64,000 nucleotides of DNA from contig OY820579.1 in the NCBI GenBank assembly GCA_963681965.1, positions 2,256,835-2,320,834 of the forward strand, read 5' to 3'. This DNA comes from a bacterium (GTDB taxonomy: Bacteria > Electryoneota > JAOADG01). Positions 1 to 64,000 of this stretch are shown here, piece after piece. The notes under the pieces are model-generated. The model saw only the letters and a program-made list of their open reading frames with translations. It was not told where the DNA came from and made no database searches. The translations under genes and the position numbers were made by a program. The stretch's first letter is position 1; every line of letters begins with the position of its first letter.

Positions 1-52
1 CCCAAGAAAACAAGGGCGTATGCCATACGCCCCTACGATAGAAAAAAGGCAC

Positions 53-880
53 ATGGCAAAAGTCACCATCGATGGACAGCAAATTGATGTAGCAGACGGA
101 ATCACGATCCTCTGGGCAGCACGCCAGTTGGGACGCGACATTCCGACGTTCTGTTACTATCCGTGGTTCCCCCCGCAGGGGAATTGTCGGATCTGTCAGG
201 TCGAAGTGAAGGGGATGCCGAAACTCCAGATCTCGTGCAACATCCCGGTGCGTGATGGCATGGAGATCTTCACCGACAACGAGCGGGTATTGCAGGCACG
301 ACGCGCAGTGATGGAATTCTTGTTGATCAATCACCCCCTCGATTGCCCGATTTGCGATCAAGCCGGTGAATGCGACTTGCAGGATCTCGCCTTCCGGCAT
401 GGTGCCGCCGTCGGACGCTTCCGCGAAGCGAAACGAACGTTCCCGAAAGTCGATTACGGAGTGAAAATATCTCGCGAGATGAATCGCTGTATCCATTGCC
501 GTCGCTGTGTGAAGCTTGCCGAAGATTATATGGGTGTGTCGGTGATTGGCGCATTGGAACGCGGCGACCGTACCGAAATTGGTGCCTATATTGAAACGAT
601 CATCGACAGCCCGTATGCCGGTAACGTGATCGACATTTGTCCGGTCGGTGCGCTGACCGACAAGAAATTCCGATTTACCGCACGGGTGTGGGATCTTGAA
701 AATGTGAATGCGCATCGTCCCGATTGCGACAAGGGATGCAAGTGCAAATTGGGAATCTATCGCGGCAAGATTCATCGGGTCACGGCGCGATTCAATCAAT
801 ACGGTGTGATGGATGCGATGATCTGCGACGAATGTCGGTACAATCATTTCGATTTATCCGATTGGGTACTTGAGTTGTAG
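53..880 (+). CDS. nuoG: NuoG-like iron-sulfur protein (2Fe-2S plus 4Fe-4S binding region only, no large C-terminal domain)
   Basis: Cys motifs CYYPWFPPQGNCRICQV, HPLDCPICDQAGECDLQD and CIHCRRCVKL; directly upstream of nuoH. Track ORF starts at 20 inside a palindromic repeat, so start moved to Met12. Confidence 0.7.
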   Translation: MAKVTIDGQQIDVADGITILWAARQLGRDIPTFCYYPWFPPQGNCRICQVEVKGMPKLQISCNIPVRDGMEIFTDNERVLQARRAVMEFLLINHPLDCPICDQAGECDLQDLAFRHGAAVGRFREAKRTFPKVDYGVKISREMNRCIHCRRCVKLAEDYMGVSVIGALERGDRTEIGAYIETIIDSPYAGNVIDICPVGALTDKKFRFTARVWDLENVNAHRPDCDKGCKCKLGIYRGKIHRVTARFNQYGVMDAMICDECRYNHFDLSDWVLEL

Positions 881-1603
881 GTCGGAATTTATTCCGACAT
901 CATTTGATCTTTTTCATCTGTCATTGCGAAGCCCCGCAGGGGCTGTGGCAATCTATCATGTGATCTTTATTATTTTTGTATCCTGATTTGTCGTTGCGAG
1001 GACTGCAGCGAAGGAACGTGCGTAGCACTTCCGAAGCGGAAGGACGAAGCAATCTATCTTGTGATCTTTGTTATTTCATCTTGAAGTAGGGGCGGATCCC
1101 CGCATCCGCCCGTATCTTGTTCTTTTTTATCTTTTGATTTTTATTTCCGTAGGGGCGTATGGCATACGCCCTAAGCGGCAGGTAGCACCTGACGCAGATC
1201 TTTATGTAAGACACGGGCGGTTCGCGAACCGCCCCTACCAAAAACAATTTGGGCGTTTGCCCTATGTTGGAGGTGGGGCTTCAGCCCCGCCACATTGAAA
1301 TCTTTTTCTGTCATGCGAAGCCCCGCAGGGGCTGTGGCAATCTATCTTGTGATCTTTATTATTTTTGTATCCTGATTTGTCGTTGCGAGGACTGCAGCGA
1401 AGGAACGTGCGTAGCACTTCCGAAGCGGAAGGACGAAGCAATCTATCTTGTGATCTTTTCGTAGGTACAGACACTCTTGTCTGTACACGTCTGCCGAAGT
1501 CAGACACAACAATATGGTCGACAGACAAAAGTGTCTGTCGCTACTGAAAAGACACGGGCAGTTCGCGAACCGCCCCTACCAAAAAAAATAGGAAGAATAA
1601 TTC
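881..1603. repeat. REP/BIME-like cluster of GC-rich palindromic hairpins between nuoG-like and nuoH
   Basis: Contains gtcggaatttattccgac, gtaggggcgtatggcatacgccc, gggcggttcgcgaaccgcccctacc and two copies of a ~70-nt element tgtcgttgcgaggactgcagcgaaggaacgtgcgtagcacttccgaagcggaaggacgaagcaatc; the same modules recur window-wide. Confidence 0.8.
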
Positions 1604-2656
1604 GTGACCGATTTTCTCTGGCTAATCGTCGAAAAAGCGATCTTCAGCGTCTGTTTGCTAGGCTTCATCATGGGCTTTGCATCCTATGCGACGCTGGCAG
1701 AGCGCCGAATCGCGAGCTGGATGCAGGATCGAATCGGACCGAATCGCGCTGGACCGTGGGGCTTGTTCCAACCGATCGCGGACGGCGTCAAGTTCTTCAC
1801 CAAAGAGGATATCATCCCGGCGAATGTGCACAAAGCGTTTTATCTGCTCGCTCCGGGGATCGCCGCAATCCCGCCGCTGATGCTGGCTGCCGCGATTCCG
1901 TGGGGATATCAATTCGAGCTGTACGGTCGCGTGATTCAATTGCAGATGATCAATCTCAACATCGGAATTCTCTATATTTTCGCCTTCGCCTCGATCGGCG
2001 TCTACGGCGTGATGTTGGGCGGTTGGGCATCGAATAATAAATTCTCGCTGATGGGCGGGCTGCGTGCCAGCAATCAGATGATCTCGTACGAATTGGCGCA
2101 GGGCACTGCTGTCGTCGGTGTCTTGATCCTTGCCGGAACACTGTCGCTGCAGGATATCGTGGTGCAACAGGACACCGTCACCCGCTGGTTTGTCTGGCGA
2201 CAACCGATAGGGTTCTTCCTGTTTTTTGTCACGTCGCTGGCAGAATGTGCGCGTGTTCCCTTTGATCTTCCGGAAGCGGAAAATGAATTGGTCGGCGGAT
2301 ATCACACGGAATACAGTTCGATGAAATTCGGTCTGTTCCAGGTGTCGGAATACATCCACATGACGGTGACCGGCGGTTTGATTTCGGTGTTGTACTTCGG
2401 CGGTTGGCAAATCCCGTTCGTGCACATGACCGATCAACCGACGATTCTGATGGCGCTGCTCGGTTTCGGTGCGATGGTTGCGAAGACTGCGTTCTTTGTG
2501 TTTGTGTTCATGTGGTTGCGCTGGACACTGCCGCGCTTCCGCTACGATCAGTTGTTGCGTCTCGGCTGGAAAGTCTTGCTGGAAGCCGCATTCATCTGGG
2601 TAATTATCACTGCGATTTTAGTTTTGGCGTGGCCATTCTATACCACGTGGTTTTAG
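1604..2656 (+). CDS. nuoH: NADH-quinone oxidoreductase subunit H
   Basis: 350-aa multi-TM protein with typical NuoH/ND1 sequence; operon position; GTG start as in track. Confidence 0.9.
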   Translation: MTDFLWLIVEKAIFSVCLLGFIMGFASYATLAERRIASWMQDRIGPNRAGPWGLFQPIADGVKFFTKEDIIPANVHKAFYLLAPGIAAIPPLMLAAAIPWGYQFELYGRVIQLQMINLNIGILYIFAFASIGVYGVMLGGWASNNKFSLMGGLRASNQMISYELAQGTAVVGVLILAGTLSLQDIVVQQDTVTRWFVWRQPIGFFLFFVTSLAECARVPFDLPEAENELVGGYHTEYSSMKFGLFQVSEYIHMTVTGGLISVLYFGGWQIPFVHMTDQPTILMALLGFGAMVAKTAFFVFVFMWLRWTLPRFRYDQLLRLGWKVLLEAAFIWVIITAILVLAWPFYTTWF

Positions 2657-2959: not shown

Positions 2960-3460
2960 ATGGCGATCAAGGTTTCTGAAAATAAATGGAAAATGACGTG
3001 GGGAGAGCGTCTCTACATCGCGCCGATCTGGGCGGGGATGCGGGTCACGCTGCGCCATTTATTCATGAAGAAATCTACCATCCCGTATCCGGAAGTAAAG
3101 GCGCCTGTATCGCCGCGCTGGCGCGGTCGGCACGTGTTGAAGCGCAACGAATTGGGTCAGGAACGCTGTGTCGGTTGTCAGATGTGCGAGCTGGCATGTC
3201 CTGCCGATGCGATCTATATCGAAGCGGCGGAAGTACCGCCGGAGAAGCGGCACGAACATCCGACCGAACGCTACGCGAAAGTATATGATATCGATATGTT
3301 GCGTTGTATCTTCTGCGGAATGTGCGAAGAGGCATGCCCGGAAGCGGCAATTTTCCTGACACCATTCTATGAAATTTGTGACGACAGCCGCGAGAAACTG
3401 ATTTACCACAAGGAGATGCTGACCGAAAAAGTCGGCGGACCGATCTGGTATAAGTTATAG
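2960..3460 (+). CDS. nuoI: NADH-quinone oxidoreductase subunit I (2x 4Fe-4S ferredoxin)
   Basis: Two CxxCxxCxxxCP motifs (CVGCQMCELACP, CIFCGMCEEACP); 166 aa; operon context. Confidence 0.9.
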   Translation: MAIKVSENKWKMTWGERLYIAPIWAGMRVTLRHLFMKKSTIPYPEVKAPVSPRWRGRHVLKRNELGQERCVGCQMCELACPADAIYIEAAEVPPEKRHEHPTERYAKVYDIDMLRCIFCGMCEEACPEAAIFLTPFYEICDDSREKLIYHKEMLTEKVGGPIWYKL

Positions 3461-3960
3461 GTGTTGGGTGGTAGGTTGTGGGTGTTGGGCAGTAGGGGCA
3501 ACCCACTGCGATCGCCCACCTTTGAAATCTTTTTTCCGTAGGGGCGTATCGCATTCGCCCCAAGCGGCAGGCAGCACCTGACGCAGATGTATATACGGAA
3601 GATAGAAGCGATGCGTGATCGCCTCTATCATAAAGAACCGGGCGTATGTTCTTCACCCGGAGGTGGGGCTTCAGCCCCGCCACAGCTTGTTCTTTTTTTA
3701 TCTTGTATCCTGATTTGTCGTTGCGAGGACTGCAGCGAAGGAACGTGCGTAGCACTTCCGCAGCGGAAGGACGAAGCAATCTATTTTGTGATCTTTCCGT
3801 AGGTACAGACACTCTTGTCTGTACATGTCTGCCGAAGGCAGACACAACAAATGTGGTCGACCGACAGGAGTGTCTGTCGCTACGGAAAAAAAACGGGCAA
3901 TCAGTATTCGCCCACAGCGAACAAAATTCGCACTAATTATTGACGAGAACTATTGAAACA
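3461..3960. repeat. REP-like hairpin cluster (nuoI-nuoJ intercistronic)
   Basis: ccgtaggggcgtatcgcattcgcccc, ggaggtggggcttcagccccgcc, the ~70-nt cgttgcgagg...gaagcaatc element, gtaggtacagacactcttgtctgtac hairpin. Confidence 0.75.
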
Positions 3961-4823: not shown

Positions 4824-5059
4824 TTTTTGGTGTTTTCCGTAGGGGCGTATGGCATACGCCCTGAGCGGCAGGCAACGCCTGACGCAGGTCTTTAAAAAAT
4901 TGAAGATGCGGGCGGTTCGCGAACCGCCCCTACCATGAAAAATGATTTGGGCGTATGCCATACGCCCCTACGGAAAGATAGATTGCCACAGCCCCTACGG
5001 GGCTTCGCAATGACAAATAATTCATCAACAACTCGAAACCAGGAATCGTCTGTAACGTA
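4824..5059. repeat. REP-like hairpin cluster (nuoK-nuoL intercistronic)
   Basis: ccgtaggggcgtatggcatacgccc twice in opposite orientations, gcgggcggttcgcgaaccgcccctacc, cccctacggggcttcgcaatg. Confidence 0.8.
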
Positions 5060-7048
5060 ATGGAAACTGCCGTTAACACTGCCAACTGGAATTATTTGAT
5101 CCTCATCCCGCTGCTTCCGCTCGCGGGCGTGTTGATCAATCTCCTGTGCTACAAAGCGAAATTGCCCGAGAAAGCAGTCGGCTGGTTCGCTTCATTGACA
5201 GTACTTTCCAGTTTCGCATTGTCGCTGATGGCATTCATCCAACTTCGCGCATTGACACCCGAACATCGTTCGATCGAAGTCGTCTTCCTGAAATGGATCG
5301 AAGTCGGTTCGCTCCATCTCGATTGGGCAATCCTGCTCGATCCTCTCTCGTCGCTGATGATGCTGATCATCACCGGTGTCGGCGGTGTGATCCATATTTA
5401 CTCCATCGGCTATATGCACGGCGACAAGAGCTTCAGCCGCTTCTTCATCTATCTCAATCTATTCGTCTTCTTCATGCTCTGGTTGGTGATGGGTAACTCC
5501 TTCGCCACCATGTTCATCGGTTGGGAAGGGGTCGGGCTCTGTAGCTACCTGCTCATCGGTTTCTGGTTCACCGATATGGCGAAAGCGAGTGCCGGAAAGA
5601 AAGCATTCGTCGTCAATCGCATCGGCGACTGGGGCTTTTTGCTGGCAATGCTGCTGCTATTCACGACATTCGGTTCGCTGCAATTCACCAAAGTGTTACC
5701 CGCTGCATTCGAGCAATATCCCAATGGCGCTCCGGTTATCACCGCGATCGCGCTGTTGTTCTTTGTCGGTGCTTGCGGTAAGTCGGCTCAGATTCCGCTC
5801 TACATCTGGCTCCCCGACGCCATGGCAGGTCCCACGCCGGTTTCTGCCTTGATCCATGCCGCCACGATGGTTACCGCCGGTGTCTATATGGTAGCGCGTG
5901 CCAATATCCTCTTTTCGCTGTCGCCGATTGCGATGCAGACGGTTGCAACGATCGGAGCGCTGACTGCGCTGTTTGCCGCGACGATCGGTTTGCGGCAGTG
6001 GGATATCAAGAAAGTGCTCGCCTATTCCACCGTGTCCCAGCTCGGATTCATGTTCCTCGGTGCCGGCGTCGGTGCCTATGAGACCGGTATCGCGCATGTT
6101 ATGACGCATGCGTTCTTCAAAGCCTGTTTGTTCCTCGGTTCCGGTGCCGTCATTCACGCAATGGAGCATGCGTTCCATCACAGCAACGTGCACCTCGATC
6201 CGCAGGATATTCGCTATATGGGTGGGTTGCGCAAAAAGATTCCACTCACCTTCTGGACATTTTTGGTTGCGACGGTCGCAATTGCCGGTATCCCCGGATT
6301 CGCGGGCTTCTTCAGCAAGGACGAAATTCTTTGGAAGACCTATGCCAGCGGTCATGTGGTGCTCTGGATTATCGCCACAATCACTGCCGGACTGACCGCA
6401 TTTTACATGTTCCGGCTCGTCTTCCTGACTTTCTTCGGCACTTTCCGGGGTGGCGCCGACGTCGAACCGCACGTCAAGGAAGTATCGCCACTGATGACCG
6501 GTGTCCTGATCGTGTTGGCATTCTTCTCGGTCTTTGGTGGTCATTTGGCAATTCCCGAATCGCTTGGTGGTCATTTCGTTATCGGCGAGTGGTTGGAACC
6601 GGTCGTAGCGAATTCCCGCTCGCTGGCAACGCTCGCATTCTATAAAGAGCACCATCCATTATCGTTGGAACTCGGCTTGATGGCGCTTTCCGTCGTCGTC
6701 GCACTGATCGGTATCGGCATCGCCGCGCTGCTCTACTGGCGTAAGAAGCAGGATCGCGAAGTATTGCTCCGCCGCGCTACCGGCTATGCCAATGTGCTGG
6801 AAAATAAATATTGGGTCGATGAGATCTACGAAATGCTTATCGTCAAACCGCTCTACAATCTGTCGGTGTTCTTCTGGAAAGTTGCCGACGGGATGGCGAT
6901 CGACGGATTCATCAACGGTACCGGTCGCTTGGTCGATGCGATCGGCGGTAGTTTGCGCCGGCTTCAAACCGGATTTATTTCCAATTACGCTTTACTCATG
7001 TCGGTCGCGATCGCATTTGTCGTCGGCTGGATGTTGTTCGGACGCTAG
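5060..7048 (+). CDS. nuoL: NADH-quinone oxidoreductase subunit L
   Basis: 662-aa antiporter-like subunit with typical NuoL/ND5 sequence. Confidence 0.9.
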   Translation: METAVNTANWNYLILIPLLPLAGVLINLLCYKAKLPEKAVGWFASLTVLSSFALSLMAFIQLRALTPEHRSIEVVFLKWIEVGSLHLDWAILLDPLSSLMMLIITGVGGVIHIYSIGYMHGDKSFSRFFIYLNLFVFFMLWLVMGNSFATMFIGWEGVGLCSYLLIGFWFTDMAKASAGKKAFVVNRIGDWGFLLAMLLLFTTFGSLQFTKVLPAAFEQYPNGAPVITAIALLFFVGACGKSAQIPLYIWLPDAMAGPTPVSALIHAATMVTAGVYMVARANILFSLSPIAMQTVATIGALTALFAATIGLRQWDIKKVLAYSTVSQLGFMFLGAGVGAYETGIAHVMTHAFFKACLFLGSGAVIHAMEHAFHHSNVHLDPQDIRYMGGLRKKIPLTFWTFLVATVAIAGIPGFAGFFSKDEILWKTYASGHVVLWIIATITAGLTAFYMFRLVFLTFFGTFRGGADVEPHVKEVSPLMTGVLIVLAFFSVFGGHLAIPESLGGHFVIGEWLEPVVANSRSLATLAFYKEHHPLSLELGLMALSVVVALIGIGIAALLYWRKKQDREVLLRRATGYANVLENKYWVDEIYEMLIVKPLYNLSVFFWKVADGMAIDGFINGTGRLVDAIGGSLRRLQTGFISNYALLMSVAIAFVVGWMLFGR

Positions 7049-10040: not shown

Positions 10041-10528
10041 TTCATCTTTCCCAACACCCATCTTTTCGGTGGCGCAGGCCTCCGAGCCTGCGATTCGCTT
10101 CTTTTAAGTATGTCGGAATTTATTCCGACTCTTTTTTTTCTTTTGGCGGTTCGCGAACCGCCCGTTTTTCTTTCTTTTCCCACCTCCCAATACCTACCAC
10201 CCACCACCCATCATTTCCGTAGGTCAGAACTTGTTCTGACCATCTCCGGTATCTTTTTCTGGTATCTAGACCTGTCATTGCATAGCCGACGTAGGCTGCT
10301 TTGGTAGCGGCGGACTTTAGTCCGCGTATTGATTTTTACAAGATTCTACAAGAATTGCGGACTAAAGTCCGCCACTACCAAAAGATGGGTGTTAGGGAAT
10401 AGGTGGTGGTAATCGGGAAAAGGTTAAAATAAGGGAGGGCGTATGCACCCACCCGTTCTTTTTATTTTTTATCCATAAATACACTTGATTTGTTTTGATC
10501 TTACCGGTAAATTACAACTGTTGTATAT
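10041..10528. repeat. REP/MITE-like cluster downstream of nuoN
   Basis: gtcggaatttattccgac, ggcggttcgcgaaccgccc, gtaggtcagaacttgttctgacc, and two inverted copies of ggtagcggcggactttagtccgc around a ~35-bp AT-rich core (MITE-like). Confidence 0.8.
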
Positions 10529-10558
10529 GTGATGTTATTCGACAATGATGAGGTGATT

Positions 10559-12295: not shown

Positions 12296-12698
12296 TATTG
12301 TATTGTGGTGGCGCAAGCTTCCGAGCCTGCGAGCATCTTCTTTTTGTAGGTCAGAACTTGTTCTGACCACTTCCTGTGTCTGCCTTTGGTGGCGCAAGCT
12401 TCCGAGCCTGCGATTCCCTGTGTCCGATAAAAAAAAAAGGGCAACAACCCATTCTTGTATCCTGATTTGTCGTTGCGAGGAACGTAGCGAAGGAACGTGC
12501 GCAGCACTTCCGAAGCGAAGAGACGAAGCAATCTTCTTGTATCTTTTTATTTTGATTTGCTATTACGAGCGAAGCACATCATGTATCCTGTCGTACAGCC
12601 GAATTCCGATTCGGCATTTTTTGACTTGGCGATCCACTTGGGTCCGATAAAAAAAAGGGCGGTTCCACAACCGCCCTTGATAATGTCTCTATCCACTC
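12296..12698. repeat. REP-like hairpin cluster
   Basis: ggtggcgcaagcttccgagcctgcg (x2), gtaggtcagaacttgttctgacc, ~70-nt cgttgcgagg...gaagcaatc element, gggcggttccacaaccgccc. Confidence 0.75.
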
Positions 12699-15252: not shown

Positions 15253-15909
15253 TTTACCGTTCCTCTCCCGGAGAATAATTGATTATTCGAACAATTATGG
15301 TGCATTGGATCAAGTTCTATGCCATTTCCATGGTTATTCATAGATATTGGTTCCCATGTCTAAGTGAACCTATTATCTATTGGTAGCGGCGGACTTTAGT
15401 CCGCTTTCAGTTATTTTATTCGTAGTAGCGTATAGTATACGCCGATGGATCAATCATGAACGCACCGTTGTTACAAGAATGGCGGACTAAAGTTCCCCGC
15501 TACCAATCTTTTCCCCCATCACCCAAAACCCACTACCTACCACCCATCCTGTCGGTGGCGCAAGAGTCCGAGCATCATCTTTTCCGTAGGTCAGAACTTG
15601 TTCTGACCACTTTTTGTTTTTTTTCTCTCTTTTCCTACCACCCACCACCTATTCCCTACCACCCATCATTTCCGTATGTCGGAATTTATTCCGACTCCTC
15701 TTGTGTCCCTCAAACACGGGCGGACGCGGGAATCCGTCCATACAGGATACAAGATTCAGGAAAAACGCAGGCTGAAGCCTGCGGCTACGCCCAAGACAGA
15801 AAAAAAAAGCGGACTAAAGTCCGCCGCTACCCTTCTTTTCCCCATCACCTACTACCCACCACCCACCACCCATCCTTATGGCACTGCCTTTGCTCCATTA
15901 CTGGTAAGA
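15253..15909. repeat. REP/MITE-like cluster
   Basis: ggtagcggcggactttagtccgc inverted pair, gtaggtcagaacttgttctgacc, gtcggaatttattccgac, cgcaggctgaagcctgcggctac. Confidence 0.8.
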
Positions 15910-18900
15910 ATGAAGGGGATCACTATGTCGGAACATCAGCCGGTCATCACCATCGGTATCACCAATTTCAACCGGGAAAAATATCTCGCGTTGGCAATCC
16001 AAAGCGCACTCGATCAGGAGACAACCGTCCCGTATGAAGTGCTGCTGGTCGACGACGGTTCTACCGACCGCTCGGTGGAAATTGCCCGAATGTTTGAGGA
16101 TCCTCGACTGCGGATCGTGGAAAAACCGCACACCAATGCTCCCGACACCCGCAATCGCTGTATTGCCGAGATGCGTGGCGAATGGTTGCTCTGGCTCGAT
16201 TCCGACGACCTGCTCCTGCCCGATGCCGTCACTCATTTGTGGGAAGTAGTTCAGCGCTATCCAGCCGTAGACGTCATATACGGCGATTTGGTCACTACCG
16301 ATGCCGATCTCAAAGAAACCGGGATCATCCACTACGAAAGTTGGCGCGGGCATAACGAAGAACTGCTGAAAACAATGCTGACCAAAAACGCGATCCCCAA
16401 TCCCGGAACAATGATTTCGAAACGGATGTTCGAGCAGCATGGCGGGTACGATCTGAATTTTAGTCGTGGTCACGATTACGAGTTTTGGTCGCGACTTGCT
16501 GGCGATGCCAATTTCGAGCATACTCCTCATGTCACCTATGCCTGGCGACTGCACGAGGGGAGTATGACGCCGCCATCGCAGGCAGGCGATAAATCGCGAC
16601 GGATCTCCGAAACACTGGTCGTACGATCGATGCTGGAACGTTATCCGATGCAACGGCTATTCCCCGAACTGCAATGGAGCAATCCCGATAAAGCGCTGCG
16701 ACGCGCATGGGAACTCGCATCGTGGTTGCCGATGATTTCCTGTAATGAAGAGGCAGTGGCGTGGTGCTATTCGAAAATTCAGGAACTCCCGACCATTACC
16801 AGTTCGAAAGCGGCACTGCGCATTCTTCATGTCGGCTGGGGGTATTACTCGAAGGATCTGAATAAATCCGGTCTGGTCGTTTACAATCACCGGTTGGCGC
16901 AGGCTCAACGCGCGCAGGGAAACGAAGTCGCTTGTTTTGTCGCCGGCGATCTGCGCAACAGTGCGACCAATGAACCGTTTGTTACACAGCGTCAAATCGA
17001 AGAAGTACGCTACTATATCGTCGGCAATCGCCCGGTCGTATACAACGATTTTTCCTTTCCGGAACGCGAGATCCACAATCCACCGATTGCGACACTATTC
17101 CGTCAGACGATCGATAATTGGCGACCGGATGTCGTCCATTTCCACAATCTCGTCGGTCTCGGGATGTCGCTCCCGGCTGTGGCAAAAGCGGCGGGTGTCA
17201 AAACCGTAATGACTGTGCACAATTTCTGGTTACCCTGCCCGCGCGGAAATTTAATCAGAGCCGATTTCACGCGCTGCGACGGTCCCGGTGACGGTCTGCA
17301 ATGCGCTGCTTGTGTCGGCGCGATCCCGCAAGCGGCACCGCGCTTTCAGCACCGATTGATGGTAGCGCAAAAAACCGTCGGTGAGCAGATCGACAAATTC
17401 CTCGCGGTATCGCAACGGGTTATCGATCTCTATCGCCAATTCGGTTTCGAACGCAATCAATACGATGTGGCAATCGCATCGGATTCTGCGACACAGTTGT
17501 GGGAAACGCAGGGCGAGTTGCGAACACGGTCGGCATTTCGGATTCCGTTGCGCTTTGCCTATTTCGGCACGATCCAGCCGATCAAAGGTCTCGATGTCCT
17601 CTTGCGGGCAATATTGAAGTTGCAGGAGCTGCGTCGCACCGAACGCAATTCCGGAGATGAGACCGCAAAACCGACATTCTTGAATGAAAAGATTGCGACC
17701 AAACCGACGAAGATCGAATTGTCGATCTTTGGTTTGATTACCGATCAGGAGTATGGGAAGATCGTGAACCGGATGATTCCGCAAATCGATCCGGAATTTG
17801 TTTCGGTGCATGTCCATGGCGAATATCAGCCTGATGAAGTTGGTGCACTGTTGGCAAAGGTCGATGTGGTGATCTCGCCGTCGACTTGCGAAGATTGTGC
17901 GCCACAAGGGGTGATGGAAGCGCTTGGTGCCGGTGTGCCGGTGATTGGATCGCGGATTGGCGGCATCCCCGGATTGATGAATGGGACGATGGGCGGGTGG
18001 TTGTTCGATGCCGGCGATGCCGAAGGATTGGCGAAAATCATTGCCGAATTGATCGACAATCCGCGCGAAGTAGAATTCAAACGTCGGGTGTTGTTGCCGC
18101 CGAAACCGTTTGCGGAGCATGTCGAGGAATTAGATCGTTGCTATCGTGAATTACTTGGCTACAATTTCGAAGAAATGAAACCGGTGACGATTCCGTTGAT
18201 GGGACAACACCGCGAGTTACCGCAGGAATTGAGCCGGAAAACGATTTTCGTCTATTCCTGGGATTCCCCGGAGAATGCCTGTGCCAAGCTGCGGATCTGG
18301 GATCCGATGCAACGCACGAAGCGGTGGGATATGGTAAATGCACACAAAATTCTCAATAACCGCCATTCCGAATTTATTCTCGACCCGAAACCGTCGATGG
18401 TGATTGTGCAGCGGCAATTCCCGATTGTGGTTTCGCGTGCCGGCGAACAATTGCGCAACCGACTTACCGATTGGCATCGCGAAGGGGTGCCGTTCACCTA
18501 CGATATCGACGACGACTTCTTCACGTTGTCGGCGAACAATCCGAATTTTGTGTTCTATCAGCGCTTCCCGCAAGCGTTTTTCCAGACGATACCGTGGTAT
18601 GTCAAGATGACGACATCCACTGAAGTATTGGCGGAACGGATGAAACGATTTGGTGTTCCGATCGAGGTACTCCCGAATCAATTGGATGAGACCTTGTGGC
18701 ATTTGGAAGCATCCGATCCAATACCGGAGCATGATGAAGATAGTCCGATCGTGATTGGGTGGATGGGTACACCGACCCACGAAGAGGATTTGAATCCGAT
18801 CCTGCCGATTTTGGAAAATGTGTTGCGCGATTATGCCGGTCGAATAATTCTCCAATTCCACGGTTGGTGTCCACCCGGTTGGCGCAAGCGCGAAGGAATT

Positions 18901-19332: not shown

Positions 19333-19748
19333 TTTTAAGTAGGGGCGGGCTCCCATGCCCGCCCGTTTTTGTATTTTTTTTTTCTTGCAGTACTGCCGAT
19401 CTCCGAATCGGCATTCTTTCACAGTAGGGGCGACCCTCCGCGGTCGCCCATTTTTGTGTCTTTTTTTATCCTCTCCCACCACCCAATACCTATCACCCAC
19501 CACCTATCTTTTCCGTGGGTCGGAATTTATTCCGACTCCTCTTGCGTCCGAAAAAGATGCGGGCGACCGCGGAGGATCGCCCCTACTACAAGATACATGA
19601 TTCAAAAAACGCATGCTGAAGCCTGCGGCTACAAAGAAAACAGAAATAAAAAAAGCGGACTAAAGTCCGCCGCTACCAAAATCTGAATACACACAAAAAA
19701 AATCGCGGGGTCGTTACAACCCCGCGATCTTCGATGAGATGACTGAAC
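19333..19748. repeat. REP-like hairpin cluster
   Basis: gtaggggcgggctcccatgcccgcccg, gtaggggcgaccctccgcggtcgccc, gtcggaatttattccgac, gcaggcttcagcatgc-type hairpin, gcggactaaagtccgccgctacc. Confidence 0.8.
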
Positions 19749-25700: not shown

Positions 25701-25828
25701 AGGATACAAGAAAGAAAAACACAGGCTGAAGCCTGCGGCTACGTTAGTCAAATACGCGGACATTAGTTCGCCGCTACGAAAAAACGGCACATCGGATGAT
25801 GTGCCGCTGAAAAATTCATCGGGAAGAA

Positions 25829-26356: not shown

Positions 26357-26404
26357 TGTTCCTCCGAGATTGTGAAATCCTGTCCGCCAAGTAATACGAG
26401 AGTA

Positions 26405-34011: not shown

Positions 34012-34031
34012 TGAGCACTCAAAATTATTAA

Positions 34032-34652: not shown

Positions 34653-34703
34653 AATAATAAATTAGAGATTAATCGCTTTAAATTGAAATGAATTACCGGT
34701 TAA

Positions 34704-44700: not shown

Positions 44701-46030
44701 CCCAATTCATTCATAGCGAGAATATAATCCGATGCAATCCGTTTTGGTAGCGGCGGAGTAAAAGAGGCCGTTTTTTTTTTGCGTAGGGGCGTATGGCATA
44801 CGCCCGAAGCGGCAGGCAGCGCCTGACGCCGAGTATGTCTCCTGATATGTAAACAAGAGGAGTCGGAATAAATTCCGACCTACCGAAAAGAAGATGCACG
44901 CAGGTTTGGAGGTCTGCATCACCAACAGGATGGGAGTTGGGGGTTAGGAGTTGGGAATTTGGGGAAAAGATCGGTAGCGGCGGACTTTAGTCCGCTCTAA
45001 GTTCTGCTTTCTTTGTAGCCGCAGGCTTCATCCTGCGTTCTTGTATCTTTTTTGATCCTGTATCCTGCAGTGGGGTGACCCTCCGCGAACGCCCGCTCTT
45101 GTATCTTTTTTACCCCAATACCCACAACCTACCACCCACCACCCATTTTTCGTAGGGGCGTATGGCATACGCCCGAAGCGGCAGGCAGTGCCTGACGCCG
45201 AGTATGTATCCTGATATGTGAACAAGAGGAGTCGGAATAAATTCCGACCTACGGAAAAGAAGATACTCGCAGGCTCGGAGGCCTGCGCCACCAAAGACAA
45301 GACACAGGAGGTGGTCAGAACAAGTTCTGACCTACGGAAAAGAAGATGCACGCAGGTTTGGAGGTCTGCGCCACCATCAGGATGGGAGTTGGGGGTTAGG
45401 AGTTGGGAATTTGGGGAAAAGAGGGGTAGCGGCGGACTTTAGTCCGCTCTAAGTTCTGCTTTCTTTGTAGCCGCAGACTTCAGCCTGCGTTTTTTTTCTG
45501 ATTATGACACAAGAGGAGTCGGAATAAATTCCGACCTACGGAAAAGAAGATACTCGCAGGCTCGGATGTATGCACCACCAACAGGATGGGAGTTGGGGGT
45601 TAGGAGTTGGGAATTTGGGGAAAAGAGGGGTAGCGGCGGACTTTAGTCCGCTCTAAGTTCTGCTTTCTTTGTAGCCGCAGGCTTCAGCCTGCTTTTTTTT
45701 TCTGATTATGACACAAGAGGAGTCGGAATAAATTCCGACATACTTCCTGACACAGGAGGTGGTCAGAACAAGTTCTGACCTACGGAAAAGAAGATGCACG
45801 CAGGCTCGGAGGCCTGCGCCGCCAAAGACAAGACACAGGAGGTGGTCAGAACAAGTTCTGACCTACCGCAACACGATCCTCCTATCACCCAATCTTTTTA
45901 GTAGGGGCGGACCCCCGTGTCCGCCCGCTCTCTTTTTTTTTATTCCCCAACGCCCACAACCTACCATCCACCACCCATCTTGTAGCCCCCGCTGGCGGGG
46001 GTTGGGGGTGGTCGCGCCGGTAGGCGCGTG
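44701..46030. repeat. Large BIME-like mosaic of REP hairpins with partly duplicated 200-300-bp blocks
   Basis: Repeated gtcggaataaattccgac, gtaggtcagaacaagttctgacc, gtagcggcggactttagtccgc, gtagccgcaggcttcagcctgcg, gtaggggcgtatggcatacgccc and G-rich gatgggagttgggggttaggagttggg tracts. Confidence 0.8.
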
Positions 46031-46079
46031 AGCGAAGCAAAAAAAACTCGCAATCAAGTTTTTCTTTAGAATCTTCTTT

Positions 46080-46220
46080 TTAGGACTCTAGAGTCCACTA
46101 AAAACTCTGGACTCGGAATCTTCTGTATCTTTCCTCGTTACCTCTAAAGATTCTTTATTTAGCTCGCAGTATGACTCTAGAGTAAAGACTCTAAAGAAGA
46201 CTCTAGAGATAAAGACTCGG
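46080..46220. other. AT-rich region with iterated gactctagag-type repeats (iteron-like)
   Basis: ggactctagagtcc palindrome, then a run of gactcta(g/a)ag units ~13-15 bp apart; unlike the GC-rich REP families. Confidence 0.4.
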
Positions 46221-46467
46221 TTGATATTTTCATGTTGTTGTGAATACATCGGTTAGACGCGTTTTCTGAGTGATAAATTGGCATCATCGGTGGATAACTC
46301 CGATAATTCAATATAAATAATACACTTATCTAGAATTGTAATGTAAATGCTTCCGAGAGTCCGATTCCGGTTAGGATAATGTGGAGATTTTCGAATTTAT
46401 ATGTTTTGAATAATTAATGGATGCTTAAAATTGTATCGAATTTATTTTGCCGAAACAAAAATAACTC

Positions 46468-46498
46468 TTGACTTTTGCCTAAAAATGTATTATATTAT
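46468..46498 (+). promoter_or_regulatory. Candidate sigma70-like promoter upstream of the OB-fold gene
   Basis: cttgact (-35-like), ~17-bp spacer, tattat (-10-like); by eye only. Confidence 0.3.
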
Positions 46499-46697
46499 AT
46501 ACAAGATGGGGAATAGGTGTTGGGTGATGGGGAGTGGGGAAAAGAAAAAAAACGATTAAAACTTCCATTGGCACTGTGCATTCACATCATCAAACATCAC
46601 CAACCATCCAACTCCGACGCTTACTGCTGCGATCTCTGACCAACAAAGACTCTTTTATAAAAAATCTCACCGTATCTTCCGCGAAAGGAATCCAACC

Positions 46698-59071: not shown

Positions 59072-59830
59072 TTCATGATATGAAGTAGTAGGGGCGGTTC
59101 TCTGCGACCGCCCTTTTTTTATTTCGTAGGGGCGAACCACGAAGTGCTTGCCGAAGGCAAACGATAAAAAGATACAAGATCGGGGGCATGCGGGGATGCC
59201 CCCCTACTAAAAAAGAAAGAGTCGGAATAAATTCCGACTCACGGAAAAGATGGGTGATGGGGGATAGGTGTCGGGTGATGGGAAAAGATAAAAACAGATA
59301 CAAGAACGGGCGGTTCTCTGCGACCGCCATTTTTTTTATTTCGTAGGGGCGAACCACGAAGTGCTCGCCGAAGGCAACCGATAAAAAGATACAAGATCGG
59401 GGGCATGCGGGGATGCCCCCCTACTAAAAAAGAAAGAGTCGGAATAAATTCCGCCCCACGGAAAAGATGGGTGATGGGGGATAGGTGTCGGGTGATGGGA
59501 AAAGATAATAACAGATACAAGAACGGGCGGTTCTCTGCGACCGCCATTTTTTTTATTTCGTAGGGGCGAACCACGAAGTGCTCACCGAAGGCAAACGATA
59601 AAAAGATACAAGATCGGGGGCATGCGGGGATGCCCCCCTACTAAAAAAGAAAGAGTCGGAATAAATTCCGACCCACGGAAAAGATGGGTGATGGGGGATA
59701 GGTGTCGGGTGATGGGAAAAGATAAAAACAGATACAAGATCGGGCGGTTCGCGAACCGCCCCTACTAAAAAAATGAGTCGGAATAAATTCCGCCCCACGG
59801 AAAAGAAGATACTCGCCTCTGTGTGGTGCT
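59072..59830. repeat. BIME-like array: ~3 tandem copies of a ~216-bp unit
   Basis: gtaggggcggttctctgcgaccgcc at ~59088, 59308, 59524, each followed by gggggcatgcggggatgcccccctac, gtcggaataaattccgac and a gatgggtgatgggggataggtgtcgggtgatggg tract. Confidence 0.85.
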
Positions 59831-60037
59831 GTTATCGGTGACTTACTAATACTATCTATCTTACCGTCGTCAATATCGATGAAATAAAAACTTACCTGTA
59901 TTTTACCGGTTTATTCGAAATAATTGCCCCTAGTTAGGGTAATTGAACCTCCGACTTTTTTATAAAACGGATCATTTTGATTGCTGGTTATTCAATTCCG
60001 GTACATATTACCGCTAATCAGACTTGTCGGAGCTTCT

Positions 60038-62191
60038 ATGAACCCCTCGTTCACTCGCAATTGGTTTGTCATTATCCTGCTTTCCCTTTCCTTTTTTACT
60101 CTCTCATTTGCACAATCGTGGATTTGGCAGAATCCGCTACCAAGCGGCAATTGTCTGCATACGGTGAAGTTCTTTGCTTCCGGTCAGGGTTGGGTTGCCG
60201 GATTGTACGGCACGATCGCTCATACCACCGATGGCGGTTTGACTTGGACCATGCAAACGAGCGGAACCAGCCAAGGACTCAACTATCTGACCATGGTGAA
60301 TGAACGCCACGGTTGGATTGTCGGTGACTCGATTCTGTTGCATACCGCCGATGGTGGCAATCATTGGGAAACAGTCACAGTCGCACCCGGATTTACAGCG
60401 AAATCGGTCGCCTTTGCCGACAGCAGTTTCGGCTGGGTGGTGGGTAACAGCGGACAAATCTACTGCACTGCCGATGGTGGTTCGACCTGGAGTCTTCAAA
60501 CCAGCAATAGTACCGCGCAACTCTATTTTGTAAGATGTATCGATCGCTCGCACTGTTGGATCGCCGGCGGTACGGCACTACTTCGCACGGTAAATGGTGG
60601 TGAGACGTGGACAACAACAACCGGCACCCGCACCCCGAGTCGATTCACATTCCTGAATGCCGATACCGGTTGGGGCGTTGGCGCGGAAAATGAGGGTGGT
60701 TATATCTGTCTGCGCACCGTCAATGGCGGTGTTTCCTGGACGACCAACAACGGTGGTTGGTTTGCGCTCGCGAGTATCGATTTCACCGATGCGCACAACG
60801 GGTGGGTAGTCGGTGAAGCCGGTATCATCCATCATTCCACCGACGGTGGTCAATCCTGGCAGAGTCAGTCGAGTGGTGTTACGAACGGTGTCGGATTAAC
60901 CGATGTCAGTTTTGTCGATTCATTGCACGGCTGGGCAACCGGTCACTATGGAATTTTGTTGCACACTATCGATGGCGGAGCGACCTGGGGACCGATGGTT
61001 CCCAGTTTTACCGGTACACTGAACGATGTCTGTTTTGTCGATTCCAGTAACGGTTGGGCGGTCGGAACCAACAACTCAGGCACTGCGCAATGTGCAATTC
61101 TGCATACCGCGAATGGCGGCACCAGTTGGGAGCGACAGACCGGCGGCGGCACCATGACTGGAAAAGGGGTTGCATTCATCAATCCCGATACCGGATGGGT
61201 GGTCGGTGATCACGGCGTCTATAAAACAATCAACGGCGGCGGCGATTGGGTACTTCAGACCGATCTTCAGGCGCTCAACTACAACCACATTTTCTTTTTG
61301 AATGAGCGCCATGGCTGGATGGTGGGACTGAATGGTCGGATCATGCATACCAGCGACGGTGGTGCCTCATGGTTTCTCCAGACCAATAATTATACCGGGA
61401 GTATCGATCGGATTGAATTCGCCGATTCGGTCAATGGCTGGCTGGCAGGATATGACAGCGGGAGCCGGAATTATTATTTGTATCATACCACGACTGGAGG
61501 TACTAATTGGTCGCTGCAGCATACCGGTACCGGATTCGCCGTATACGATTTTGCGGTGATCAGTCCGAGTGAGTGTTGGGTTGCCGGCGGTTCGGTCAAT
61601 ACGACGCCGCAGCATCCATTGTTGTTACACACGCTCGATGGCGGTGCGAATTGGAACGATGTGTCACCCAATGTTTCTTACGAATTGCATGGCTTGGTCT
61701 GGTTCGACAGCAACCACGGCACGATCTGCGGCAGTAACGGCATGATCCTGACGACTACCGACGGTGGAACAATGTGGTCGAGAACTGTCGTGACAAATCA
61801 GAGCTTTACCACCATTTGCGCGACCGATCGCAATCATTCTTGGGTTGTTGGATTGAGCGGTACGATTCTCTTTTCCGGTCGCACGTCGATGTCGGATGTG
61901 ACGGAACCGGTGACCAGCAAATTGCCAAAGGAATTTGTGCTGCATCCGAATTACCCTAATCCATTTAATAGCTCGACGACGATTTCGTATTCATTGCCGA
62001 TTTCGGGAAATGTCGACTTGAAGATTTTCGATCTGCAGGGGCGGGAAGTCCAGTCGGTATATTCGGGATCTACCCATGCGGGAAGTTATCGTGCCAGTTT
62101 CGATGGGAAGGGGTTGGCATCGGGGACGTATTTTGTCCGGTTGCAGATGGGTGAGGCGGTTCGGATTCAGAAAATTGTTTTATTAAAGTAG
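60038..62191 (+). CDS. BNR/Ycf48-like repeat protein with T9SS C-terminal sorting domain
   Basis: Signal peptide; many TxDGGxxW / TxNGGxxW repeats; C-terminal YPNPFNSSTTISYSLP...GTYFVRLQ...QKIVLLK. Confidence 0.7.
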   Translation: MNPSFTRNWFVIILLSLSFFTLSFAQSWIWQNPLPSGNCLHTVKFFASGQGWVAGLYGTIAHTTDGGLTWTMQTSGTSQGLNYLTMVNERHGWIVGDSILLHTADGGNHWETVTVAPGFTAKSVAFADSSFGWVVGNSGQIYCTADGGSTWSLQTSNSTAQLYFVRCIDRSHCWIAGGTALLRTVNGGETWTTTTGTRTPSRFTFLNADTGWGVGAENEGGYICLRTVNGGVSWTTNNGGWFALASIDFTDAHNGWVVGEAGIIHHSTDGGQSWQSQSSGVTNGVGLTDVSFVDSLHGWATGHYGILLHTIDGGATWGPMVPSFTGTLNDVCFVDSSNGWAVGTNNSGTAQCAILHTANGGTSWERQTGGGTMTGKGVAFINPDTGWVVGDHGVYKTINGGGDWVLQTDLQALNYNHIFFLNERHGWMVGLNGRIMHTSDGGASWFLQTNNYTGSIDRIEFADSVNGWLAGYDSGSRNYYLYHTTTGGTNWSLQHTGTGFAVYDFAVISPSECWVAGGSVNTTPQHPLLLHTLDGGANWNDVSPNVSYELHGLVWFDSNHGTICGSNGMILTTTDGGTMWSRTVVTNQSFTTICATDRNHSWVVGLSGTILFSGRTSMSDVTEPVTSKLPKEFVLHPNYPNPFNSSTTISYSLPISGNVDLKIFDLQGREVQSVYSGSTHAGSYRASFDGKGLASGTYFVRLQMGEAVRIQKIVLLK

Positions 62192-62300
62192 GCGCGACCC
62201 TCCGCGGTCGCCCGCATCTTTTTTGGACACAAGAGGAGTCGGAATAAATTCCGACCTACGGAAAAGATGGGTGATGGGTTGTAGATGACGGGATTAGTAG
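62192..62300. repeat. REP-like hairpins
   Basis: ggcgcgaccctccgcggtcgccc, gtcggaataaattccgac, gatgggtgatgggttgtagatgacggg. Confidence 0.7.
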
Positions 62301-62327
62301 GATTGCAATGACGAAGGAGGATCGATT

Positions 62328-63734
62328 ATGAACACAGGCAACAGCAGTTACTTTCGAAACATAGTGACGATTGTGGGTATTCTTGTTTTTGCGACAATCG
62401 GCTTTGCGCAATCGACGTATATTCACACCATACCCCACAATGATTTTTCCGAATGTTCCGATGTGGTTGAAACACCGGACGGCGGCTACTTCTTGCTCTG
62501 CATCATGCAGAATGGAATTGAGAACAATCTGATTTTGCACCGGATCAATTCAGATGGTGAATTGGTATCGACCCACAATTACGGAATCACCGCAGTTGGA
62601 GAATTGTACCGGCAGCGGATTATCTCCGCGAATGATGGGAATTATCTCATAGCCTCGACCTATCGTGGTGAGAGTGGTTGGCTGTTGAAAATCGATTCCT
62701 CGGGGGATACGCTTTGGACCTATCGACCAACTGACAACAACTGGAGCTTTAGCGATCTCTATCAGACGTCCGATGGATCCATTTATATCGTCGGTGGCGG
62801 AAACGGGCGACTGCAACTGCTCAAATTCAGTGCCGCCGGTACACAGCTTTGGTTCCAGACTTATCCCGGAATCAGTCACGGCGGAGGTAGTATTATTCCA
62901 GCAGTCGACAGCGGTTTTGTCATTTCCTCGTGTGTCGAGACTTCCAACTATTACGACATTAGTGTCAAGAAGGTCGATACGGCGGGAATCCAGCAATGGA
63001 CAACGATCTTTGGCGATGGAAACGATCAGATCCCAACTTTTATCAAATCCGATGCGGGGTATGTGGTTGGCGGGTATAATGGTGGCGAATCGTGGAGCGG
63101 CGATAATTTTCGACTGCGTTTAAATTCCGCCGGGGATACTGTATCCTGCCAGCATTGGCAAAATTCGTTTTATCCGGCTTGCACTACACCGCTAAGCGAC
63201 GGCGGTTATATCTATGGCGTTTCCGGTACCGGATCGTTTGGACTAAGTAAATTCGGAGCCAATCAGAATATTCTTTGGGAACGAACCTTTTCGATCGGTA
63301 CCAACAATTATTATTTTCCGCAATTCATCGAAGAGGCATCCGATCATAGTTTGATCGTCACCGGTGTGGTGGTGTATCCCGGTGGAGATCGACACGATAT
63401 ACTGATTGCCCGGACCGACTCGCTCGGTTTGATCGGACAGGCTGTTGTTGGCAAAGACATTTCACTTCCGGTTTCGGTTGCGATGCTGTCAAGTTATCCC
63501 AATCCATTCAATAATGTGACCACAATTTCGTATTCGCTGCCGTCATCCGGGAATGTCGAACTCAAGATTCTCGATCTGCAGGGGCGGGAAGTGCAGTTGG
63601 TATATTCGGGATCTACGCATGCGGGAAGTTATCGTGCCCGTTTCGATGGGAAAGGATTGGCATCGGGAACGTATTTTGTCCGGTTGCAGATTGGTGAGGC
63701 GGTTCGGATGCAGAAAATTGTTCTGTTAAAGTAG
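62328..63734 (+). CDS. Secreted protein (possible beta-propeller) with T9SS C-terminal sorting domain
   Basis: Signal peptide; C-terminal YPNPFNNVTTISYSLPSSGNVELKILDLQGREV...GTYFVRLQIGEAVRMQKIVLLK, nearly identical to the CTD of 60038-62191. Confidence 0.6.
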   Translation: MNTGNSSYFRNIVTIVGILVFATIGFAQSTYIHTIPHNDFSECSDVVETPDGGYFLLCIMQNGIENNLILHRINSDGELVSTHNYGITAVGELYRQRIISANDGNYLIASTYRGESGWLLKIDSSGDTLWTYRPTDNNWSFSDLYQTSDGSIYIVGGGNGRLQLLKFSAAGTQLWFQTYPGISHGGGSIIPAVDSGFVISSCVETSNYYDISVKKVDTAGIQQWTTIFGDGNDQIPTFIKSDAGYVVGGYNGGESWSGDNFRLRLNSAGDTVSCQHWQNSFYPACTTPLSDGGYIYGVSGTGSFGLSKFGANQNILWERTFSIGTNNYYFPQFIEEASDHSLIVTGVVVYPGGDRHDILIARTDSLGLIGQAVVGKDISLPVSVAMLSSYPNPFNNVTTISYSLPSSGNVELKILDLQGREVQLVYSGSTHAGSYRARFDGKGLASGTYFVRLQIGEAVRMQKIVLLK

Positions 63735-64000
63735 GGACGAACTTCAGCGGTCACCCGCTCTTACTAATAAAGAAGGAGTCGGAATAAATTCCGACCTACG
63801 GAAAAGATGGGTGATGGGGGGTAGGTGTTGGGTGGTGGGAGAAGATAAAAAAGACACAAGAACGGGGGCATGCGGGGATGCCCCCCTACTAAAAAACAGG
63901 ATGCAAGATAAATAAAGATGTAAGAATGGGTGAATGCGTTGGAATGCCTGTACCCCTTCTTTTCACCATGAACTATGCACCAGCAACCAAGCACCCATTT
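63735..64000. repeat. REP-like hairpin cluster
   Basis: gtcggaataaattccgac, gatgggtgatggggggtaggtgttgggtggtggg, gggggcatgcggggatgcccccctac. Confidence 0.7.

Follow-up and report, generated by a model that had tools for sequence, protein, structure and literature searches.

A heavy load of GTAG-tagged, REP-type hairpin repeats in the intergenic DNA of a bacterium of the FCB superphylum

The stretch analyzed here, called the window throughout, comprises 64,000 nt of a bacterial genome of 4.34 Mb (assembly GCA_963681965.1, contig OY820579.1, positions 2,256,835 to 2,320,834 of the forward strand). In ENA ERZ21878129 it falls at approximately 697–761 kb of contig_1, which is 4,339,467 bp long. 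Its genes include a 14-gene nuo operon, proteins with type IX secretion system (T9SS) tails and BNR/Ycf48-like repeats, trigger factor and tadA, and much of the space between them is occupied by short GC-rich hairpins that carry the tetranucleotide GTAG and resemble repetitive extragenic palindromic (REP) elements. With an extension of approximately 10 kb at each end, the readable sequence comes to 82,131 bp (the 82 kb below), of which 23.0% is intergenic. Repeats cover 62.7% of the bases of this intergenic DNA compared with 1.0% of the coding DNA, where the covered bases are paralogous protein domains. Units are present in 24 of the 35 intergenic regions of at least 100 bp, the local density is approximately 1.7 units per kb, and repeats make up about 15% of the local sequence.

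Structure and families of the tagged hairpins

Perfect-stem hairpins (stem of at least 7 bp, loop of 3–10 nt) number 141 in the window, compared with 23–37 in five Markov control sequences; approximately 100 of them, and nearly the whole excess over the controls, are intergenic. This excess and the coverage given above bear out in part an initial annotation of the window, which had described the intergenic space as full of GTAG hairpins. The commonest 4-mers flanking the perfect hairpins are GTAG upstream and CTAC downstream. A catalogue built family by family holds 128 hairpin units in the window and 138 in the 82 kb, every one of them (100%) intergenic. The tag is exactly GTAG in 96 of the 128 window units and GTGG in 12 (103 and 13 of the 138 in the 82 kb), and in 108 of the 128 GT[AG]G is positioned 0–2 nt 5′ of a GC-rich stem-loop with a stem of 7–9 bp; the definition of a canonical REP given by Quentin et al. 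(2018; PMC6006769) asks for GT[AG]G 0–2 nt 5′ of a stem with 7 bp or more.

The tag stands on one side only, each unit reading [TTCC]GTAG, hairpin, a linker of 2–4 nt and then YTCTTGT or a T-run, and most units are bare modules of tag and hairpin, 22–30 nt long. Hairpins that both start with GTAG and end with CTAC, as had been described, do not fit this one-sided arrangement. Eight long strings had been quoted for the repeats: five of them, being all those of the form GTAG...CTAC, have no exact match, and their closest matches break down at the far end in every case. The short motifs are real. One of these, GTCGGAATAAATTCCGAC, is matched exactly at 18 places, or at 20 if W and one mismatch are allowed, against 0.00 expected, and GTCGGAATWWATTCCGAC has 20 window copies against 0.00 expected from 100 shuffles.

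At least 11 hairpin families, labelled A–I, L and M, coexist (K denotes a separate 84-nt element). Their stem sequences are wholly different and the tag is common to all, consistently in the form GTGG in family C. Stems are 7–9 bp, with loops of 3–4 nt in families A, B, D, E, F, G, L and M and of 6–8 nt in C, H and I, slightly beyond the 2–5 nt rule of PMC6006769. The 5′ context is also family-specific: CCGTAG before F and M, TGGTAG before G, and (T/A)AGTAG before H and I.

Family H has six or more compensatory stem variants and together with I forms a superfamily of the form GGGCG-NNN, loop YYCYRY, NNN-CGCCC. Across 14 distinct variants of the 8-bp H/I stem, 99.1% of cells are paired, three of them as U–G wobbles, and compensatory changes are found at four of the eight pairs, in 22 cells compared with 5.7 in shuffles. 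When the partner is slid by 1–3 columns as a control, pairing falls to 42–52%. This covariation argues that the hairpin structure is under constraint.

Family G is a perfect palindrome and is found as inverted doublets with the tags outside. Around one such doublet, a 186-nt region (39440–39625) folds as single-stranded DNA (ssDNA) at −49.2 kcal/mol, with z = −11.2, and is 70% self-complementary over 157 nt; the spacer of approximately 100 nt is itself not a repeat. The inverted G doublets, a minority of the units, thus form one long hairpin like that of a REPIN (REP doublet forming a hairpin). At gathering thresholds, the sole Rfam match in the window is a tRNA-Leu.

Two further modules accompany the hairpins. 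The initial annotation had described most of the hairpins as GTAG-headed, which fits the catalogued units, with the tag counts just given, but not the G-rich tracts or the 84-nt K element, neither of which is a simple GTAG hairpin. The G-rich tracts, already noticed there, have 28 intergenic copies, each approximately 31 nt of 7–8-nt, GGGTGRT-like repeats, and a relaxed G-quadruplex (G4) motif matches 22 times compared with 1–4 times in controls (mean approximately 2.4). The tract is joined to units of families A, B, C and I on their tag side, and the two together form a composite of approximately 100 nt that recurs. Of 18 tracts in codirectional intergenic regions (44–64 kb and 24.3–24.7 kb), 15 have their G-rich strand in the sense orientation, and such a tract, if transcribed, would place a G4-prone RNA sequence directly 3′ of hairpin-CUAC. 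The K element has 5 full and 3 partial window copies. It had been noted as an imperfect palindrome of approximately 70 nt; the element is real, with a length of 84 nt, but its fold is not significantly better than that of shuffles (z from −1.0 to −1.4), and we rejected K as a strong palindrome at z of about −1. One example each of the E unit, the G doublet, the tract and K is given here.

972–1055, plus strand: K element with internal GTAG and a 6-bp hairpin
27315–27337, plus strand: lone family-E unit, GTAG followed by CCGCAGGCTTCAGCCTGCG, the same word as in 21 IMG/VR stretches
39458–39607: family-G REPIN-like doublet, GTAG followed by GGGCGGTTCGCGAACCGCCC, a spacer of approximately 100 nt, the inverted copy and then CTAC
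54577–54607, plus strand: G-rich heptad tract GGGTGATGGGGAATGGGTAGTAGGTGATGGG, adjoining the tag side of an A unit

The K element is also found in an array in the 801-bp nuoC–nuoD spacer (L110:3964–4534, corresponding to window −4433 to −3863), where six copies follow each other head to tail with a 101-bp period and 97–98% identity; nuoC and nuoD overlap in the syntenic relative GCA_026417415.1 (L115).

Clusters, tandem composites and orientation

The mosaic combinations reported earlier are readily seen: different unit types stand side by side, mixed in variable order and in both orientations. Neighbouring units are head to tail in 58 cases, with tags outside in 30 and with tags inside in 16, and it is co-oriented blocks of 2–3 units that alternate rather than single units. 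These counts, and those of orientation for the G-rich tract above and for the families below, include tandem copies, which are non-independent events, so that the effective numbers are smaller. Composites are reiterated head to tail at 95–100% identity with periods of 99 bp (9.6 copies, 24746–25698), 321 bp (2.6 copies, 50496–51334), 217 bp (3 copies, 59092–59750), 204 bp (2.2 copies, 45301–45743) and 121 bp (2.2 copies, 57096–57357). In these arrays composite blocks have been amplified secondarily, through tandem duplication in place. The only open reading frames that are exactly duplicated inside repeats are copies within tandem arrays. The clusters are listed below; arrowheads give the orientation of each unit, and spacer lengths "in the relative" are those of L115.

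881–1603: nuoG/nuoH, A> K> H> F> G< K> L> G<, 85% repeat-covered; 12 bp in the relative
2657–2959: nuoH/nuoI, M> G<; 9 bp in the relative
3461–3960: nuoI/nuoJ, F> K> L> and a G-rich tract at 3460–3498; 5 bp in the relative
4824–5059: nuoK/nuoL, F> G< F<; the genes overlap in the relative, and Logan contig L002 begins inside
10041–10558: downstream of nuoN, C> A> G> j> B> D> D<; L002 ends inside unit C (10073–10092)
12296–12698: between convergent genes, C> B> C> K> H>
15253–15924: between divergent genes, D> D< j> B> j> A> E< D< j>
19333–19748: between convergent genes, H> H> j> A> E< D<
24169–25828: largest left-hand cluster, holding the 99-bp composite (B> H<) × 9.6 (TRF, 95% matches, score 1752)
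31392–32217: K> M< D< B> j> K>, abutting a truncated TonB-dependent receptor fragment
44701–46533: 1.8-kb cluster between divergent tadA and the next gene, 23 modules, with the 204-bp tandem × 2.2
50384–51534: cluster with the 321-bp composite × 2.6, unit [D> E> H> A< j< B<]
53644–54767: downstream of a BNR/T9SS gene, starting with F> and E> units that bear T-runs (53690–53747)
56855–57829: two G-tracts, then F> E> H> G> G< G< A< j< K< C< j<, with the 121-bp tandem × 2.2
59072–60037: cluster with the 217-bp composite × 3, unit [I< A< j<]
62192–62327: lone family-A unit between two T9SS genes; Logan contig L109 begins inside
63735–64000: window-edge cluster, A< j< I<, running on to 64298 in L108

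Direct repeats of 123-bp period at 51800–53300, 57960–58770 and 60170–61670 are not REPs: they encode the BNR/Ycf48-like beta-propeller blades of three T9SS proteins. The C-terminal sorting domains at 61951–62191 and 63494–63734 share 84–85% DNA identity.

In the orientation that puts GTAG first, all units consist of a GC-rich hairpin and, behind it, a tail rich in pyrimidines or T, and between 44 and 64 kb there are 84 terminator-like sites compared with 21.5 expected. Clear cases stand directly after stop codons (53690, 53720, 56979 and 57009), the F and E units in such places bearing T-runs. Many other units lie within the nuo operon, are antisense or have no U-tract; the F units inside the nuo operon continue into a second small hairpin (..AGCGGCAGG), with no T-run. 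In codirectional intergenic regions, sense and antisense units number 15 and 2 for family H, 7 and 2 for E, 6 and 2 for D and 6 and 2 for F, against 3 and 14 for A, 2 and 14 for B and 1 and 4 for I. The orientation of A, B and j flips at 32–44 kb. Replication direction was considered as a reason and rejected, there being no sign change in GC skew; overall, the orientation of units tracks transcription better than replication, though imperfectly. With H, D, E and F lying mostly sense and A, B and I mostly antisense, clusters would be expected to terminate transcription, or to insulate, in both directions. From their sequence, the clusters look like bidirectional terminator or RNA-stabilizer blocks, as proposed for the bacterial interspersed mosaic elements (BIMEs) of Escherichia coli.

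Relatives, transposase genes and phages

The proteins of the window form singleton clusters at 90% identity. Serine hydroxymethyltransferase (SHMT) has relatives named 'MAG: bacterium' (metagenome-assembled genome) at 77–85% identity, followed by Zixibacteria, LCP-89, Delongbacteria and Marinimicrobia at 64–69%, while for trigger factor one relative reaches 58% and all other matches stay at or below 29%. These matches place the host in a sparsely sampled lineage of the Fibrobacteres–Chlorobi–Bacteroidetes (FCB) superphylum. Three syntenic loci from the closest relatives available were compared with the window: L115 (SHMT 80%), L113 (SHMT 85%) and L102 (trigger factor 58%), the last probably from the same organism as L113, since the run that yielded it also yielded the SHMT locus L112. 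Gene order is colinear between the window and these loci, their hairpin density is at chance level (0.6–0.9 per kb), and none of the three has a GTAG-tagged hairpin. The eight spacers from nrdR–nuoA through nuoK–nuoL total 127 bp in L115 compared with 3,860 bp here, an approximately 30-fold growth; all eight are filled with units, and seven clusters lie within the operon. Likewise the junction between the CTP-transferase gene and ytfJ measures 3 bp in L102 and 415 bp here, where it contains a G doublet. The absence of the units from the relatives' syntenic DNA, nuo operon included, shows a lineage-specific invasion. Insertion polymorphism relative to close relatives, which the initial annotation had put forward as a check, is thus seen as units missing from syntenic loci, though between species and not strains.

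Logan short-read contigs (run ERR12015701) are 100% identical to the stretch over 8 kb and start and end inside repeat units. This rules out an artefact of assembly and points to multiple copies of the units in the genome. These breaks, together with the 138 units over 82 kb, agree with the expectation that the repeats are not confined to the window. Because of these repeats, short-read assemblies of this organism shatter at nearly every intergenic region.

Some differences between the window and L102 go beyond the spacers. The block at 25829–31391 (from Vut_1 to a C25/T9SS protease) is inverted and displaced relative to the order in L102:17109–21299, and its edges lie in repeat-rich regions (24.2–25.8 kb and 31.4–32.2 kb), suggesting repeat-mediated rearrangement. 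At 32158–33017 a fragment of a TonB-dependent receptor or outer membrane protein beta-barrel (profile positions 164–305 of 408) starts at a truncated K element, and the receptor gene appears to have been broken at a repeat. A low-GC island follows at 33202–36130 (31% GC at 34–36 kb compared with approximately 49% overall). Its four minus-strand genes include one RelA/SpoT-like and one nucleotidyltransferase gene; it has no REP units, is missing from L102 and gives only a weak PDC-S09 match with PADLOC. The island may have been acquired horizontally and may serve in defence or as a toxin island.

REPs are spread by REP-associated tyrosine transposases (RAYTs), and the family-A unit links the present repeats to such enzymes in other bacteria. 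A scan with GTAGGTCRGAAYTTRTTCYGAC over one genome per GTDB species gave more than 97 stretches among the matches listed. These are almost all from Gamma- and Betaproteobacteria (Marinomonas, Lysobacterales, Rhodocyclaceae, Colwellia, Motiliproteus and others), with single listed matches in Planctomycetia, Pirellulaceae, Deltaproteobacteria and Candidatus Kapaibacterium, and many are closely spaced inverted pairs. The family-A word GTAGGTCGGAATTTATTCCGAC occurs verbatim in many Proteobacteria, where it flanks RAYT genes (PF01797) of 150 amino acids (aa). The corresponding 150-aa open reading frame (ORF) stands between family-A REPs in Marinomonas (L072) and Colwellia (L014) and beside REPs in L093 and L075, and at these loci the family-A REP alternates on each side with a second REP type in a BIME-like manner. 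A profile built from the four 150-aa ORFs of these loci retrieves thousands of PF01797 proteins from a collection of 5.8 billion proteins, several of the listed matches being named 'REP-associated tyrosine transposase' or 'RayT' by their sources. With a length of about 150 aa and the motifs DHFH, WQ and YIVANP, these proteins fit subclass 2.5 of the TnpAREP enzymes in PMC6006769. The link between the window and RAYTs is thus supported indirectly, through family-A REPs that lie beside RAYT genes elsewhere. For the host itself, tblastn with RAYT queries (an E. coli RayT sequence and the RAYTs recovered from these loci) gave no match in the window, in agreement with the earlier reading, nor in the two 10-kb extensions or the viral loci described below.

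Tagged units were also seen in two other settings. In a Candidatus Kapaibacterium MAG, the spacer between mrp/apbC-like and nifU-like genes (L040:1366–1620) has one family-A REP and two GTCGGGTTGAAACCCGAC-CTAC units, so that GTAG REPs occur in Kapabacteria as well. A scan of Joint Genome Institute (JGI) metagenomes with a lineage-framed pattern gave two matches, both from another organism of higher GC content (L100:60–190 and L101:920–1060), with a family-A unit in the same TTCC frame beside a nested palindrome, GTCGTTGCGAGCG...GAAGCAATC, akin to the arms of the K element.

Other words are shared with phages. IMG/VR contigs of 42–69% GC contain verbatim stretches of family G (19), F (5), E (21) and H1 (4), the H1 match spanning the full 26 nt with its T–G mispair included; families A, B and D have no viral matches in IMG/VR. 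The phage-contig copies do not have the T-rich tail. Among the loci examined (L116–L164, including L125 and L132), L117 and L133 are tailed phages with tape measure, terminase and portal genes, each with several tagged hairpins, and no RAYT-like protein is encoded in the viral loci. Such exact words, common to phyla and phages, argue for horizontal movement or strong convergence. In L117, 11 tagged hairpins lie within 14 kb, and the provirus IMGVR_UViG_2710723536_000001 bears both G and E. In L133, two family-G REPs (5332–5355 and 5548–5571) lie in frame inside a continuous phage ORF of 730 aa, between its portal-like and minor-head-like parts, each encoding SVGAVREPP.

Origin of the units and comparison with known systems

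The elements are a heavy, recent and lineage-specific load of a known kind of repeat and not a new kind of element. The REP/BIME-like identity that had been proposed for them is upheld by the tag placement (108 of 128), the restriction to intergenic DNA, the mosaic clusters, the compensatory stems and the REPIN-like doublets. We consider it probable that they are REP-type elements in BIME-like mosaic clusters, disseminated by a RAYT and with a role at the RNA level. Primary spread would be the work of a RAYT/TnpAREP-type HUH Y1 enzyme, encoded now or in the past, which would recognize GTAG and the hairpin on ssDNA and then cut and rejoin. Composite blocks were multiplied secondarily through local tandem duplication, and units in place may act in RNA as a hairpin with a U-rich 3′ structure, in termination or mRNA stabilization. 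As no RAYT gene lies in the 82 kb read, RAYT-mediated spread is something we infer rather than observe.

Several points weigh against this explanation. The 82 kb, out of a genome of 4.34 Mb, have no gene for a RAYT or any other Y1 HUH enzyme, and none of the best 120 RAYT homologues listed is from this genome, all being of proteobacterial type. Only family A is tied to RAYT genes, the other families not having been found in the proteobacterial loci. The 58 head-to-tail neighbours outnumber inverted pairs, and head-to-tail dimers are rare in most described REP genomes (PMC3733652). In addition, the loops of H and I (6–8 nt) are longer than the published 'short hairpin' rule of 2–5 nt (PMC6006769). 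On the other hand, RAYTs of subclass 2.4, whose REP types include canonical ones, are abundant in Cyanobacteria and Bacteroidetes (PMC6006769), and from their abundance in Bacteroidetes a RAYT in an FCB lineage would not be unprecedented.

An origin independent of RAYTs would make the units terminator-like or 3′-untranslated hairpins multiplied by recombination, slipped-strand duplication and gene conversion, with GTAG as a by-product of shared ancestry. The pyrimidine-rich tail of every unit, the excess of terminator-like sites (84 against 21.5) and the F and E units with T-runs directly behind stop codons are what it predicts, and the prevailing head-to-tail arrangement, the composites at 95–100% identity, which show duplication to be active, and the lack of a RAYT in the 82 kb agree with it as well. 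However, units lie mostly sense within the 14-gene nuo operon, where efficient terminators would harm, and many tails are not U-tracts, the in-operon F units running into ..AGCGGCAGG instead. GTAG is kept across families with unrelated stems, the words on phage contigs lack the T-rich tail, and the family-A word is RAYT-associated elsewhere. Recombination alone also leaves unexplained how some 24 intergenic regions that are empty in relatives were seeded, and we regard this origin as unlikely. Less likely still are non-autonomous derivatives of an IS200/IS605 TnpA, similar to palindrome-associated transposable elements (PATEs), or a classical family of miniature inverted-repeat transposable elements (MITEs). 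The ends of IS200/IS605 likewise use a subterminal hairpin and a guide tetranucleotide (PMC6006769), and no enzyme has been identified for this genome; yet the GT[AG]G tag is a RAYT-specific signature (PMC6006769), there is neither tnpA nor tnpB in the 82 kb, and terminal inverted repeats and longer conserved element bodies are lacking, most units being bare hairpins of 22–30 nt. A MITE, which has terminal inverted repeats around a body of 100–400 bp and target-site duplications, was rejected for the same reason, no body bounded by such repeats recurring among tag-and-hairpin modules of variable order.

The regular spacing of some arrays, such as the 99-bp period, could recall a CRISPR-like array, an assembly artefact or DNA uptake sequences, to all of which we give a negligible probability. 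An artefact is ruled out by independent assemblies from another run, which agree with the stretch at 100% identity over 8 kb, repeat edges included. No unique spacers separate the tandem units: whole 99-bp units are 95% identical, and whole tandem units, 'spacers' included, 95–100%; no cas genes are seen among the annotated genes and the tRNA is the only Rfam match, so a CRISPR array was rejected. Uptake sequences are ruled out because the motifs, unlike such sequences, are missing from coding DNA and the units are intergenic only.

A broader reading would join these observations, although we hold it improbable as a whole: a cosmopolitan GTAG 'vocabulary' would cross phyla, possibly on phages, and would recently have invaded a REP-free lineage to approximately 15% of the local sequence; there it would have fused with the G4-prone heptad tract into a module of hairpin and G-tract not described for REPs, acting as a bidirectional terminator or insulator, and it might spread with no RAYT in the host genome.

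Proteobacteria are the group in which REP elements have been studied best, and here a very heavy load of many families is found in an FCB lineage whose relatives' loci are REP-free. This gives a clean comparison before and after REP invasion of a compact genome, with approximately 23% intergenic DNA, spacers grown approximately 30-fold and a rearrangement adjacent to repeats. Should the genome prove to encode a RAYT, it would lend itself well, as a natural system, to the question of how many REP families a single such enzyme or a small set of them can service, and it would help to ask how exact REP words come to be shared with phages and distant phyla.

Among described systems, the repeats are most readily compared with the GTAG REP super-family of Di Nocera et al. 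(2013; PMC3733652), which has several families per genome, compensatory sub-families and G–T pairs, occurs as singletons, dimers and large clusters with tandem reiteration, and has some families common to distant taxa; examples are the SMAG families of Stenotrophomonas and the clustered GTAG-23 of Thermomicrobium roseum. The present units share with it a one-sided GTAG (sometimes GTGG) beside a GC-rich stem, of 6–13 bp there, as well as the multiple families, compensatory stems, G–T pairs, tandem clusters and sharing across taxa. They differ in their host: the survey reports GTAG repeats from Proteobacteria, Cyanobacteria, Chloroflexi and the Planctomycetes–Verrucomicrobia–Chlamydiae (PVC) superphylum but not from Bacteroidetes or Chlorobi, where CGTC repeats were found, whereas the host here belongs to the FCB superphylum. 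They also differ in having approximately 1.7 units per kb and at least 11 families in the same intergenic regions, in the dominance of head-to-tail order, and in the G-rich heptad tract attached to some families.

With the REP/BIME and TnpAREP system of E. coli (PMC3333891, PMC3479197, PMC8266576) the units have in common the GTAG at the foot of the hairpin, which is the element recognized, the mosaic clusters of different REP types, the sites between operon genes and the proposed roles in termination and mRNA stability. The E. coli BIMEs alternate inverted Y and Z REPs and one REPtron is known there, whereas here blocks of 2–3 co-oriented units alternate and the 82 kb have no REPtron. The family-G doublets make long hairpins like those of the REPIN–RAYT system of Pseudomonas (PMC3116915), and the family-A word flanks RAYTs of subclass 2.5 (PMC6006769) in Gamma- and Betaproteobacteria. 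REPINs, however, usually have one family per RAYT and short spacers (PMC3116915), while the units here are mostly singletons or head-to-tail blocks and the doublet spacer is approximately 100 nt.

What is unusual in the present case is the density of approximately 1.7 units per kb, the tandem composites arranged head to tail, and the G-rich heptad tract on some families. For this tract there may be a precedent in cyanobacteria, where heptamer tandem repeats (STRR, short tandemly repeated repetitive sequences) are reportedly associated with very small dispersed repeats, as Elhai and colleagues are said to have described in 2008. The likeness, heptad tracts beside small mobile hairpin repeats in intergenic DNA, is a lead and not a test; unlike the STRR, the heptad here is GGGTGRT-like and is fixed to the tag side of specific REP families.

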